Of a DNA stretch of 45,517 bases, positions 15,861 through 18,144 are shown piece after piece. Under the pieces are notes generated by a model. That model ran no database searches. It saw only the letters and a program-made list of their open reading frames with translations, and was not told the origin of the DNA. This stretch comes from an uncultured Candidatus Poseidoniales archaeon (GTDB lineage: Archaea; Thermoplasmatota; Poseidoniia; Poseidoniales; Poseidoniaceae), in NCBI GenBank assembly GCA_964516645.1, contig CAZEXE010000008.1, forward strand, positions 1 through 45,517, written 5' to 3'. Made by a program: the position numbers and the translations under genes. Every line of letters begins with the position of its first letter. The stretch's first letter is position 1.

Positions 15861-17249
15861 TCAAACTTTGGCGATAACTTTCATTTCAACCGCTATCGGA
15901 GTAGGTAAGGCACGTATTGCCAAGGTAGTTCTAGTTGGACCAACCCTTCCTAACGTTTCAGCCCACACCTCGTTATATCCTGCAAAATCCCTATCCATAT
16001 CAACCAAGAAAGATGTTACATCGATTACCTTGTCTAAGGATGAGCCTGCTTCTTCTAAAATTCGAGAAATATTTTCGATAACAGCCCTAGTTTGAGCTTT
16101 GATGTCATAATTGAGTGGTTTGCCATCTGCATCCTTAATTGGACCGCCTGGAATTGAATTATCACCTGGTTGTCTTGGTCCAACTCCTGAAAGGTAAATC
16201 AGATCTCCTTCTCTTCTTGCATGAGGATAAGCGCCTACAGGTTTGGGTGCTTTGGAAGTATTCACTGTGTTAGCACCTTCAACAGGGTCATATAGTGCTG
16301 GGCCAGAATTTGTAGATTCTGCGATATGTGACTTTTTCTCAGAGTCTAGTACATTTCGGTCTCCCCCGAAATAATCAACATCGTCTTCATCGTACTCCTT
16401 ATCTCCAGTACCATTGGATTCGGGATCTAGAACAACAACTGCTGCACCAGCACCATGTATAGGTTCGTAAGCAAGAACTTCCCCCGTTAGGTCATTGCGA
16501 TTATCATTCATTGCAGAAAGCCACCACATCGGCTTGAATGCTACTACCTTCTTCACTCTAATCTGATCGTGAATGGTTCTACTTAACTGACCAACGTCCT
16601 CAAGACGCCCTTCAGACAAAAACTCCAAAATTTTCTGATTCCATTCTTCATCTTTTAAGGAATGAATTCTATCTTCATGTGGTTCGATGGGTTCAGTGAA
16701 CATTCTGTTCGAAAGCGACATTACAGAAACAGCTACTGCTTTCTTTCCTTGTGCTTTGATTACATCCATACATGCTTTTGCTAATACCGTGGTCTCGGCA
16801 CGGTTTGAATATACATTTGTAGAACAAATTACCGCAGGAATACGATTATCTGGATTTAGTAATTCCAACGCTACTACTGAACCTACATCGATTGGGAAGC
16901 CATGGTATGCAACAGTGCGTGATTCAAGCCCTCTAGCAATATTCGCTTCATTCCAAGCAATAGCGAATTCTGCATCGATTTTCAAAGAGTAATGTATGCT
17001 TCCCAAATCATGGAAATCCGCATCCACCATCACCCACTCTGGATTCGGGTCGGCCTGTATTTGATGGCCGATTACACTTGGCCATAATGTTGAATAAATG
17101 ATGATTAAATCTGCATCACTATCTTCGATTTGTCTGCGCGCGTCATCATAAGCATCTCTAACTCTTTGCCATCCTTCATTTTTCTCAGGACACAAAACCG
17201 GATGAGGGTGAGCAGGTACAATCAACGATTTGATTACTTCACCAGACAT
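15861..17249 (-). CDS. Fusion protein: non-catalytic LigB-family (class III extradiol dioxygenase, AmnA-like alpha) domain plus C-terminal RidA/YjgF/TdcF (2-aminomuconate deaminase-like) domain
   Basis: The likely start is ATG 17249 (MSGEVIKSLIVPAHPHPVL), 1 nt after the upstream TGA (17253..17251); the track start at 17321 overlaps by 71 nt.

The N-domain is a paralog of the upstream gene, but the SPHW and SHRH His motifs are replaced (YSTLW, SNRM). An acidic linker follows (DKEYDEDDVDYF). The C-terminal ~135 aa carry the RidA signature: PKPVGAYPHARREGDLIYLSGVGP ... TTLAIRALPTPIAVEMKVIA. Confidence 0.75.
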   Translation of the reverse strand: MSGEVIKSLIVPAHPHPVLCPEKNEGWQRVRDAYDDARRQIEDSDADLIIIYSTLWPSVIGHQIQADPNPEWVMVDADFHDLGSIHYSLKIDAEFAIAWNEANIARGLESRTVAYHGFPIDVGSVVALELLNPDNRIPAVICSTNVYSNRAETTVLAKACMDVIKAQGKKAVAVSVMSLSNRMFTEPIEPHEDRIHSLKDEEWNQKILEFLSEGRLEDVGQLSRTIHDQIRVKKVVAFKPMWWLSAMNDNRNDLTGEVLAYEPIHGAGAAVVVLDPESNGTGDKEYDEDDVDYFGGDRNVLDSEKKSHIAESTNSGPALYDPVEGANTVNTSKAPKPVGAYPHARREGDLIYLSGVGPRQPGDNSIPGGPIKDADGKPLNYDIKAQTRAVIENISRILEEAGSSLDKVIDVTSFLVDMDRDFAGYNEVWAETLGRVGPTRTTLAIRALPTPIAVEMKVIAKV

Positions 17250-17250
17250 T

Positions 17251-18144
17251 TCATGCACCCCAATTTCGACAAGGCCATTCCATGATTGCATTTCCAGTCC
17301 CAATGATGGTTCCATAACCATGCAAGATTGCAGGCTCGCTAGGTGTTCCCATCGCAGATAACAACCAAGTCAATGCTCCCCCATCTGCTTCAGCAATCGC
17401 TTGTTCGCAGAACTCCGGCATTTCATTGATAATTTGCTGAGAATTGCCCTGTCGCATCATCTCAATCATTCTCATATCCCACAAATGCATTGCATGACTT
17501 GTAATGTGCTCTTTGCTCATATCCTCGGGAGGATTTGTCTCGGTTACGAAGTGGCGGTGAGATAGTGAATTACTTGCCAATAGCAGACATTTCTTGCCAC
17601 TCTGCTCAATCGCCTTGGCGGTAGAACGTCCAAGTTCAATCATCATCTCTTGCATGACTTCAACTGAATAGTAGGAAAGACTACGATTGGAAGAGATGGA
17701 GACTATCGGTTTATCCCATTCAGGCCGAACCATATGACACGATACAATCGTGCCATAATCAACTCTAAAATCAGGATTGTTCATCATCTTGACAGACATT
17801 CCCTCCGACTTGGCTTGATCGTGGATTGCTTTAGCAAGTTCAACATCGATTGTAATATCATAATTGAATCTGAACAGATTTGGGAATACTGGATCTACAC
17901 TCTTTGAAGAACACTTCTCAACCCCAACAAAATGAGTCCCCACATATGTTTGCCAATGTGGAGAAAGGACCACGATAACATCGTAGTCCACATCTTTAAG
18001 CGAATCTCTCAGTCTTTCATATCCCCAACGCAATTGTTCCCAACCGCCTTCAGAAACAGGCTCATTTTGCTCTGGATTCTCCGCATAAACCAGATGTGGC
18101 GGGTGCGGGGCAAGACAGCCAGCGACTATACCTCCCTTCGCCAT
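17251..18144 (-). CDS. LigB-family class III extradiol ring-cleavage dioxygenase, catalytic (beta-like) subunit
   Basis: 297 aa. The N-terminal CLAPHPPHLV, then VVLSPHWQ and SNSLSHRHF, match the conserved His-containing motifs of LigB/AmnB-type enzymes. Confidence 0.78.
   Translation of the reverse strand: MAKGGIVAGCLAPHPPHLVYAENPEQNEPVSEGGWEQLRWGYERLRDSLKDVDYDVIVVLSPHWQTYVGTHFVGVEKCSSKSVDPVFPNLFRFNYDITIDVELAKAIHDQAKSEGMSVKMMNNPDFRVDYGTIVSCHMVRPEWDKPIVSISSNRSLSYYSVEVMQEMMIELGRSTAKAIEQSGKKCLLLASNSLSHRHFVTETNPPEDMSKEHITSHAMHLWDMRMIEMMRQGNSQQIINEMPEFCEQAIAEADGGALTWLLSAMGTPSEPAILHGYGTIIGTGNAIMEWPCRNWGA

Follow-up and report, generated by a model that had tools for sequence, protein, structure and literature searches.

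Positions 1 to 45,517 of contig CAZEXE010000008.1 of an uncultured Candidatus Poseidoniales archaeon (Marine Group II, MGII; assembly GCA_964516645.1), called the window below, carry on the minus strand two adjacent genes that would encode a heteromeric dioxygenase of the AmnAB type for an ortho-aminophenol, with a RidA domain of the deaminase type carried by the alpha subunit. Together with an aldehyde dehydrogenase (ALDH) gene from the same cluster, they would form a three-step catabolic module, for which tryptophan, by way of kynurenine, is the most likely source of substrate. We put the probability of this reading, which was reached by comparison of sequences, at about 0.7. AmnB, AmnA::RidA and an ALDH of the 2-aminomuconate-6-semialdehyde dehydrogenase (AMSDH) type are encoded together, and archaea and bacteria alike have conserved them as a unit.

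Layout of the two genes

The upstream gene, ORF1 (open reading frame 1; 17251..18144, minus strand, 297 aa), is of the amnB type and is predicted to encode the catalytic beta subunit of a 2-aminophenol-class extradiol dioxygenase. The downstream gene, ORF2 (15861..17249, minus strand, 462 aa), is an amnA::ridA fusion that begins one nucleotide past the amnB stop codon. The junction reads tgcaTGA-a-ATGtct, with stop and start one base apart, exactly as stated in a first-pass annotation that had been made from the letters of the window. ORF2 consists of a presumably non-catalytic alpha LigB domain of the AmnA type (residues 1-275, 16425..17249), an acidic linker (residues 276-325, 16275..16424) and a RidA-family domain of the 2-aminomuconate deaminase (AMD) type (residues 326-462, 15864..16274), all on the minus strand. 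Pfam detects LigB in ORF1 (2e-25) and, in ORF2, LigB at residues 18-271 (5.5e-12) and Ribonuc_L-PSP at residues 332-461 (7e-25). ORF1 and ORF2 are 26% identical.

The program-made list of open reading frames contains a longer ORF2 of 486 aa, starting at 17321. We preferred the ATG at 17249, because solved alpha subunits align to the 462-aa form from residue 5 on, and because the homologues among the matches listed are mostly 460-465 aa long.

The catalytic beta subunit

When ORF1 was compared with all PDB chains, the best match was 8ihg_A, the beta subunit of 2-aminophenol 1,6-dioxygenase (AmnB, 2e-112, 56% identity), followed by 3vsg_B, the beta subunit of 2-amino-5-chlorophenol dioxygenase (CnbCb, 6e-108, 55% identity), and by the Micromonospora chain 7txy_B (1e-91). 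In CtAPD, the enzyme of Comamonas, the iron ligands are His13, His62 and Glu251, and Tyr129 and His195 are second-sphere residues (PMC5291488). These five residues align with His14, His63, Glu252, Tyr130 and His196 of ORF1, which has kept all three ligands and both second-sphere positions. The motifs APHPPH, SPHW and SHRH, which had been pointed out in the upstream gene, all occur in ORF1. By its closest relatives and its active-site residues, ORF1 is an AmnB-type catalytic beta subunit that is predicted to bind Fe(II).

Other identities were tried for ORF1 and rejected, namely HpaD, MhpB and DOPA-dioxygenase (90 bits against a cutoff of 316, and weaker) as well as MEMO1 (NF001987, E-value 0.012, 14.8 bits against a cutoff of 295). 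A placement among Memo/AmmeMemoRadiSam-type proteins, named in the first-pass annotation as the case that would speak against its own assignment, is excluded by the weak match to the MEMO1 model and by the grouping of ORF1 with AmnB.

The degenerate alpha domain

Residues 1-275 of ORF2 have alpha subunits as best PDB matches (3vsg_A, 6e-39; 7txy_A, 1e-35; 8ihg_B, 2e-33), with weaker matches to beta subunits (about 1e-24 to 1e-26), and they are 32% identical to CnbCa. The earlier proposal of a catalytic beta and an inactive alpha subunit, as in AmnB/AmnA, is thus upheld by the match of ORF1 to solved AmnB (2e-112) and that of ORF2 to a solved AmnA chain (6e-39). Both matches, and that of the RidA domain to a solved deaminase chain (6e-28), lie far beyond chance.

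In an alignment of ten sequences, the five active-site columns are occupied by Ala, Leu, Lys, Val and Asn in ORF2, and by Gly, Gln, Asp, Thr and Gly/Ser in the solved alpha subunits. Ala, Leu and Lys of ORF2 stand at the positions of His13, His62 and Glu251 of CtAPD (the first is Ala13, opposite His14 of ORF1), and Val and Asn stand at the second-sphere positions of Tyr129 and His195. It had been claimed that the downstream paralog retains a PAHPHP motif and has YSTLW and SNRM in place of the other His motifs. All three motifs are present, and the loss of the metal ligands turned out to be complete, but the 'retained' PAHPHP holds no metal ligand. Its His16 aligns with the non-ligand His17 of the beta subunit, a position that is also His in the Micromonospora alpha subunit, and the neighbouring His14 varies between H, K, M and L among homologues. 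Judged by these columns, the alpha domain is fully degenerate at the metal site and represents an AmnA-type subunit that would be free of iron. In the M. rosaria enzyme, the alpha2beta2 complex is needed for a soluble, active dioxygenase (PMC10470539).

ORF2 was modelled as a monomer with AlphaFold2 (AF2) from a shallow alignment, whose sequences were 75-90% identical. The model had a low predicted local distance difference test (pLDDT) score, 61.7, and was kept out of the fold search.

The RidA domain

The best PDB match of residues 326-462 of ORF2 is 6izh_A, the 2-aminomuconate deaminase of Pseudomonas sp. AP-3 (5.5e-28, or 6e-28 when rounded; 46% identity), and the second-best RidA protein in the PDB follows at 4.6e-21. 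The link to 2-aminomuconate deaminase made in the first-pass annotation agrees with this result. Papers differ in naming the deaminase AmnD or AmnE (PMC6742747, PMC10470539). ORF2 and AmnE have a 12-13-residue insertion in common, the long Lp2 loop, which is not found in the generic RidA proteins PH0854 and TTHA0137 (2dyy, 2csl). The loop drives hexamer formation in the solved deaminase (PMC6742747); Arg56 of AmnE, which forms the hexamer, aligns with Lys in ORF2. Arg440 of ORF2 (in the sequence 'TRTT'; the equivalent of Arg105 in E. coli RidA) is unchanged across a set of six diverse fusion proteins, and its counterpart in AmnE and PH0854 lies in their PAR/TR motif; a PH-x-[KR]-R motif is common to the RidA domain of ORF2 and the solved deaminase. 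On the strength of these similarities, we assign the C-terminal domain to the deaminase branch of the Rid family. 2-Aminomuconate, with a half-life of about 160 min, requires a dedicated deaminase; validated 2-aminomuconate deaminases speed its decay, whereas human RIDA does not (bioRxiv 10.64898/2026.06.05.730449).

Fused and split forms

The fusion is common, with thousands of carriers among Marine Group II sequences and further ones in many bacterial phyla. At an E-value threshold of 1e-5, 2999 proteins match ORF2. The 120 homologues listed are all MGII-like, and every full-length protein among them contains both domains. The source names attached to the closest homologues point to Poseidoniaceae as the family of the window. 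In a library of representatives at 50% identity, fused clusters go down to 41% identity (P0121, P0123, P0130). A scan of GTDB species representatives identified full-length fusions in archaea (Poseidoniaceae, Thalassarchaeaceae and other Thermoplasmatota) and in bacteria (Myxococcota, Planctomycetota, Bdellovibrionota, Thermoanaerobaculia, Holophagaceae, Solibacteraceae, Krumholzibacteriia and unclassified proteobacteria). In public records, these proteins are labelled only as 'Rid family hydrolase', '2-aminomuconate deaminase' or 'hypothetical'.

For the analysis of gene neighbourhoods, ORFs were clustered from 80 GTDB loci (L004-L083), three MGII contigs (L001-L003) and the window, with a tblastn check. 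The AmnA and RidA parts form a single uninterrupted reading frame in 60 of 82 loci, are encoded by separate adjacent genes in 19, and lie apart in 3. In the split state, RidA is a free-standing protein of 140 aa that is still encoded next to its partner. A rough neighbour-joining tree without support values places all members of MGIIa, the lineage of the window, in one fused clade; the genes are split in three bacterial groups of this tree as well as in its main MGIIb clade. The prevalence of fused genes, together with the 19 loci with adjacent split genes, argues for a functional partnership of the AmnA and RidA parts.

The linker is acidic, with 15 Asp and Glu against 5 Lys and Arg in residues 273-333, and the description of ORF2 as a RidA-family domain fused through such a linker was therefore accurate (Ribonuc_L-PSP, 7e-25). 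Residues 295-324 have a pLDDT below 50 in the low-confidence AF2 model, and the linker is probably flexible. The alpha domain is followed by the acidic motif EYDEDDVDYFGGDRNVL (residues 285-301 of ORF2, 16347..16397, minus strand), which was matched by a strict pattern in 65 of 82 loci and is present as near-variants in most others. At split loci, the AmnA protein terminates just past this tail motif. It is missing in canonical AmnA/CnbCa and in a few bacterial lineages (L058-61, L068, L082). The tail motif may serve as a docking motif.

Further domain combinations were noted in the library of representatives. P0125 is an AMSDH-like ALDH fused to three tandem RidA domains (873 aa), and P0122 consists of three tandem RidA domains alone. 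Among P0196, P0197 and P0223, a LivM-like ABC permease is joined to an AmnA-like domain, in some cases together with a BD-FAE alpha/beta hydrolase; in P0196, the AmnA-like domain is fused to both the permease and the hydrolase. The tail motif and the fusions in P0125 and P0196 suggest that members of the pathway are prone to physical association. In MGIIb (Thalassarchaeaceae), the free-standing RidA is extended at its N-terminus by about 85 aa, which include a hydrophobic stretch rich in Gly and Ala, GRAIGAAAGVAVGGPVGGVVGAVVG (L062 10909..11559; also L063-L067 and L077-L081), which resembles a membrane-associated segment or a glycine zipper.

The conserved gene cluster

The genes recur in the order short-chain dehydrogenase/reductase (SDR), luciferase-like monooxygenase (LLM), Asparaginase_II-like hydrolase (AsnII), ALDH, amnB, amnA and ridA. 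With flanking genes for tryptophan 2,3-dioxygenase (TDO) and a protein of the kynurenine formamidase (KFA) family at some loci, the order (TDO)-SDR-LLM-AsnII-ALDH-AmnB-AmnA-RidA-(KFA) is seen in Myxococcota, Planctomycetota, Bacteriovoracia, 'Deltaproteobacteria', other Thermoplasmatota and MGII. A PF04199 'Cyclase' gene, from the family of bacterial kynurenine formamidases, adjoins ridA in 30 non-MGII loci, and a TDO gene (PF03301) lies at most 10 kb away in 6 loci. TDO genes are common in Poseidoniales, but at another locus. At this MGII locus (L084-L086, 10001..11089), the TDO gene immediately precedes a thiolase gene that is read from the same strand, and it is oriented divergently to a gene for a GNAT acetyltransferase.

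In marine metagenome contigs seeded from the LLM gene, the hydrolase gene followed in 63 of 63 cases, the ALDH gene in 56 of 56, amnB in 40 of 41 and ridA in 37 of 38, wherever the contig was long enough. These contigs are all from MGII relatives with at least 69% identity, and the counts describe synteny within MGII, not in independent lineages.

The ALDH gene (19458..20879, minus strand) is of the AMSDH/AmnC type, would provide the second step of the pathway and is co-located in 41 loci. Its best PDB matches are 4i1w, a 2-aminomuconate-6-semialdehyde dehydrogenase (1.3e-131), and AmnC, 7bzv (8e-131), with other ALDHs at 8e-112 or weaker. In AMSDH, Arg120 and Arg464 form the substrate clamp, and roles have been described for Cys302 and Glu268 (PMC4286809). 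The residues equivalent to Arg120, Arg464, Glu268 and Cys302 of 4i1w are all identical in the window ALDH.

The asparaginase-like hydrolase (20834..21949, minus strand; Pfam Asparaginase_II, 7e-49) is of class 3, the Rhizobium etli type, with PDB matches to ReAIV and ReAV at about 1e-15. The Ser-x-x-Lys tandem and both Cys residues are kept; the sequence CSGEH replaces CSGKH of R. etli ReAV, which changes the zinc ligand Lys138 to Glu. This is the most conserved gene of the cluster, with 70-76% identity between this archaeon and the bacterial copies of the same cluster.

Always adjacent to it is the gene for a divergent flavin-dependent monooxygenase of the luciferase-like type (403 aa; 21954..23165, minus strand). 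Bac_luciferase was matched by 16 of 18 members of the family (best 8e-13), and a profile compared with PDB sequences reached luciferase alpha alone (2e-4). An AF2 model (pLDDT 81.7) had Foldseek neighbours that were all LLM folds, at 12-16% identity, with luciferases, SsuD/MsuD, RutA, F420 enzymes and type II Baeyer-Villiger monooxygenases (BVMOs; 3,6-DKCMO) intermixed. The modelled structure thus supports the LLM fold, a fold that does not specify subfamily or chemistry.

The head of the cluster is an enoyl-reductase-type SDR gene (24018..24860, minus strand; Pfam adh_short_C2, 1e-32), which takes the same position in bacterial clusters (for example, L031, L039, L050 and L075).

Other genes around the cluster

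In MGIIa only, the cluster is headed by a gene for an alpha/beta hydrolase of the BD-FAE/Abhydrolase_3 type (24835..25590, minus strand; Pfam BD-FAE, 9e-16; 13 MGIIa loci). It is 25% identical to the hydrolase domain that is fused to AmnA in P0196, and the motifs HGGxW and GHSAGGHL are common to both. It was also tested as a kynurenine formamidase of the eukaryotic type, none of which was among its PDB matches. It might be a candidate formamidase or aryl-ester hydrolase that replaces the cyclase-type formamidase.

The gene that immediately follows the fusion gene in 36 MGII loci encodes an amino-acid permease of the APC family with a C-terminal pair of EF-hands (14097..15752, minus strand; AA_permease, 5e-41; EF-hand_7, 2e-10); at this position, bacteria carry the gene of the kynurenine formamidase family. 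The combination of an APC permease with an EF-hand pair is unusual. The protein is a candidate importer of the substrate.

Two genes lie between the ALDH gene and amnB in MGIIa only: panB (18605..19420, minus strand; Pantoate_transf, 6.5e-115) and, on the plus strand, an antisense hydrophobic ORF of 136 aa (18201..18611) that is conserved in 17 MGII loci. Bacterial clusters do not have panB at this position, and the main MGIIb clade has it downstream of the dioxygenase genes; panB is probably outside the pathway. A tetratricopeptide repeat (TPR)-like protein of 265 aa (23211..24008, minus strand) is encoded between LLM and SDR in 21 archaeal loci and not in bacteria. Two very large predicted proteins on the plus strand are conserved beside the cluster in MGIIa contigs, one of 3016 aa (2420..11470) and one of 859 aa (11517..14096) that begins with a signal-like sequence, has repeated Ig-like segments and carries a transmembrane stretch at its C-terminus. 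Additional flank ORFs of high-GC bacterial loci contained no relevant families, and many are probably spurious antisense calls (cluster c32, for instance, is antisense to ALDH).

Proposed function and alternatives

In the proposed module, ORF1 together with ORF2 would convert o-aminophenol to 2-aminomuconate 6-semialdehyde, the ALDH, encoded two genes upstream, would convert the semialdehyde to 2-aminomuconate with NAD+, and the RidA domain would release ammonia from 2-aminomuconate to give 2-oxohex-3-enedioate. The fusion would tether the enzymes of the first and third steps, which would give the module a fixed stoichiometry and keep its parts together around two labile intermediates. The semialdehyde has a half-life of 9-35 s and cyclises to picolinate (PMC4286809), so that the proximity of all three activities should matter. 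RidA enzymes work as trimers or hexamers, and AmnAB is an alpha2beta2 tetramer that dimerises through beta (PMC6742747, PMC10470539); with both properties combined, a larger assembly is possible. The bacterial neighbours, TDO and the kynurenine formamidase family, make tryptophan or kynurenine the most likely source of the aminophenol, rather than a pollutant.

Several observations weigh against this reading. The first-pass annotation had suggested that the fusion couples ring cleavage to deamination. The fusion is real, but the tethered steps are the first and the third, which are not consecutive, and direct hand-over is therefore not implied. The symmetry of a RidA trimer or hexamer would also have to be reconciled with that of the alpha2beta2 tetramer. 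Both accessory activities score below the cutoffs of the available family models: the ALDH reaches 516 bits against the 693 required by the equivalog TIGR03216 (2-hydroxymuconic-semialdehyde dehydrogenase), and the RidA domain 84.4 against 106.25 bits for TIGR00004, the canonical RidA of NCBIfam, although the latter score fits a specialised subgroup and not a housekeeping RidA. Within the 45 kb, no gene for TDO or a cyclase-type formamidase was found in MGIIa. There, panB and the antisense ORF also break a cluster that is contiguous in bacteria, and co-transcription of the ALDH gene and amnB is not assured. Finally, no 4-oxalocrotonate decarboxylase, hydratase, aldolase or acetaldehyde dehydrogenase was detected in the Pfam-scanned ORFs of the window of at least 150 aa (four very large ORFs left out) or in the sampled flanks, and from the scanned ORFs the route onward from 2-oxohex-3-enedioate would lack a candidate decarboxylase, hydratase or aldolase.

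The last finding bears equally on the view that the genes belong to a classical xenobiotic pathway of the amn/cnb kind, in which free 2-aminophenol is derived from nitrobenzene, aniline or chloronitrobenzene, as in Pseudomonas sp. AP-3 and Comamonas CNB-1, and the fusion is a compact version of amnA and the deaminase gene. For the ALDH and each of the three domains, the nearest characterised relatives do stem from such pathways. However, the carriers are planktonic archaea of the open ocean and a diversity of uncultured bacteria, the genes of the lower pathway are missing from the scanned ORFs and sampled flanks, and the conserved partners are TDO, a cyclase of the kynurenine formamidase family, the LLM monooxygenase and the asparaginase-like hydrolase. 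We consider a xenobiotic role improbable. The TDO and formamidase context could also be explained if the dioxygenase acted on 3-hydroxyanthranilate or 3-hydroxykynurenine, as a LigB-type stand-in for the cupin HAAO in a conventional kynurenine pathway, with the ALDH and RidA processing a carboxylated or acylated aminomuconate. The 1,6-cleavage of 2-aminophenol has the same regiochemistry as the 3,4-cleavage of 3-hydroxyanthranilate. On the other hand, KMO, and kynureninase too in the case of 3-hydroxyanthranilate, would have to be encoded elsewhere: the KMO, kynureninase, HAAO and ACMSD families were not seen among the recurring neighbour clusters, the scanned window ORFs or the sampled flanks, with whole genomes outside the search. 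The beta subunit is moreover 55-56% identical to enzymes for unsubstituted or chloro-substituted 2-aminophenol, and the LLM and asparaginase-like genes would be left without a role. This alternative is somewhat less improbable than the xenobiotic one, and still unlikely.

A different kind of doubt concerns the RidA domain, which might be a generic scavenger of imines and enamines, or a purely structural module whose oligomerisation assembles alpha-beta units, rather than the deaminase of the pathway. The RidA fold is a robust trimer, proteins with three tandem RidA domains occur in the clade (P0122), and the NCBIfam score is under the cutoff, all of which would fit. Yet the nearest relative is the solved deaminase, with the loop insertion, the PH-x-[KR]-R motif and the catalytic Arg all kept; the split gene stays adjacent as one for a free-standing 140-aa protein; and the fusion of an ALDH to three RidA domains in P0125 ties the domain to the step after the ALDH. 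We therefore regard a role other than that of the pathway deaminase as very improbable.

A possible bypass of the kynurenine pathway

If tryptophan is the source, the cluster as a whole might represent an undescribed catabolic pathway that proceeds via 2-aminophenol and bypasses KMO, kynureninase, HAAO and ACMSD. We advance this only tentatively and think it rather less likely to be right than wrong. TDO and formamidase would produce kynurenine. The LLM would then insert oxygen, in a Baeyer-Villiger reaction, between the ring and the side-chain carbonyl of kynurenine (or N-formylkynurenine), giving the 2-aminophenyl ester of aspartate or, after an O-to-N acyl shift, N4-(2-hydroxyphenyl)asparagine. 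The class-3-asparaginase-like hydrolase would cleave this beta-aspartyl aryl ester or anilide to L-aspartate and 2-aminophenol, and AmnB, AmnA::AMD and AMSDH would take 2-aminophenol to 2-oxohex-3-enedioate and ammonia. Several enzymes would be brought into one assembly around the short-lived semialdehyde by the fusion and the acidic tail motif.

The LLM and the hydrolase are uncharacterised enzymes that the cluster always contains, and the Baeyer-Villiger reading of the upstream steps is the one in which each conserved gene would have a role. As a reaction of kynurenine, the step is possible on chemical grounds. In the searchable literature, we found no precedent for kynurenine with a Baeyer-Villiger reaction or with a luciferase-like monooxygenase.

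Comparison with known systems

The dioxygenase resembles AmnBA and CnbCaCb (PDB 8IHG, 3VSG-3VSJ; the Micromonospora ARO enzyme, 7TXY) in having a LigB beta subunit with the 2-His-1-carboxylate triad and a paralogous alpha subunit without it, encoded by adjacent genes with beta before alpha. It differs in that the alpha subunit bears the acidic tail motif and a C-terminal deaminase domain, and in its archaeal host. The canonical amn operon (amnBACDFEHG) includes lower-pathway genes that were not found in the archaeal cluster, among the scanned ORFs and sampled flanks. Similarly, the RidA fold, the long Lp2 loop and the conserved Arg are shared with 2-aminomuconate deaminases (AmnD/AmnE of Pseudomonas sp. 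AP-3, 6IZH; NbaF; the fungal and Burkholderia AMD), which are also encoded in one cluster with an AMSDH-type ALDH. Each of the known deaminases is a separate protein of about 140 aa, assembling into trimers or hexamers (PMC6742747), whereas here the domain is fused to AmnA.

The bacterial kynurenine pathway to 2-aminomuconate (TDO, KFA, KMO, kynureninase, HAAO, ACMSD, AMSDH and AMD, as in Burkholderia/Cupriavidus and the nba cluster) has both ends in common with the cluster described here, TDO and formamidase on one side, AMSDH and an AMD-type deaminase on the other. The four middle enzymes were not seen among the neighbour clusters, and the LLM monooxygenase, the class-3-asparaginase-like hydrolase and AmnAB are found instead. 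The upstream logic proposed above, with oxygen insertion beside the ring of an aryl ketone, hydrolysis to a phenol and ring cleavage, would be that of the 4-hydroxyacetophenone route, in which the aryl ketone undergoes Baeyer-Villiger cleavage by 4-hydroxyacetophenone monooxygenase, a type I BVMO that depends on FAD and NADPH, and an esterase hydrolyses the aryl ester. In the archaeal and bacterial cluster, an LLM-fold enzyme and a class-3-asparaginase-like hydrolase are the candidates for the two reactions, with kynurenine as the proposed substrate.

In the actinobacterial ARO microcompartment, AmnAB, a semialdehyde dehydrogenase and a deaminase likewise form an early-pathway unit, with the lower pathway elsewhere (PMC10470539). 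There, the enzymes are brought together by a shell of proteins, with beta bearing an encapsulation peptide; here, covalent fusion to alpha may serve this end, with no shell genes among the scanned window ORFs. The authors of that study concluded that the real substrate is some unidentified precursor of 2-aminophenol (PMC10470539).

Significance

All parts of the system are known enzyme types. The covalent AmnA-deaminase architecture and the conserved cluster around it are not found in the searchable literature, where no relevant work turned up that connects Marine Group II or Poseidoniales to aminophenol, aminomuconate or kynurenine, and a survey of the Rid family makes no mention of a LigB fusion (PMC4433059). 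The AmnA-deaminase fusion, the tail motif, the archaeal host and the composition of the cluster set the system apart from those described.

The coexistence of fused and split variants offers a natural experiment on the inactive subunit as a scaffold. If the link to tryptophan is true, the genes for meta-cleavage of 2-aminophenol, usually regarded as pollutant-degradation genes, would have a natural source of substrate, and this source is an open question raised by the ARO microcompartment paper (PMC10470539). The divergent luciferase-like monooxygenase family and the class-3-asparaginase-like family would gain functions, and uncultured Marine Group II archaea, whose substrates are largely inferred, would gain an amino-acid catabolic trait. 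If the bypass pathway is also true, it would be at work in several phyla of bacteria and in Marine Group II, whose members rank with the most abundant archaea of the plankton. The interest of the finding rests mainly on this testable link to tryptophan catabolism in abundant uncultured marine archaea.

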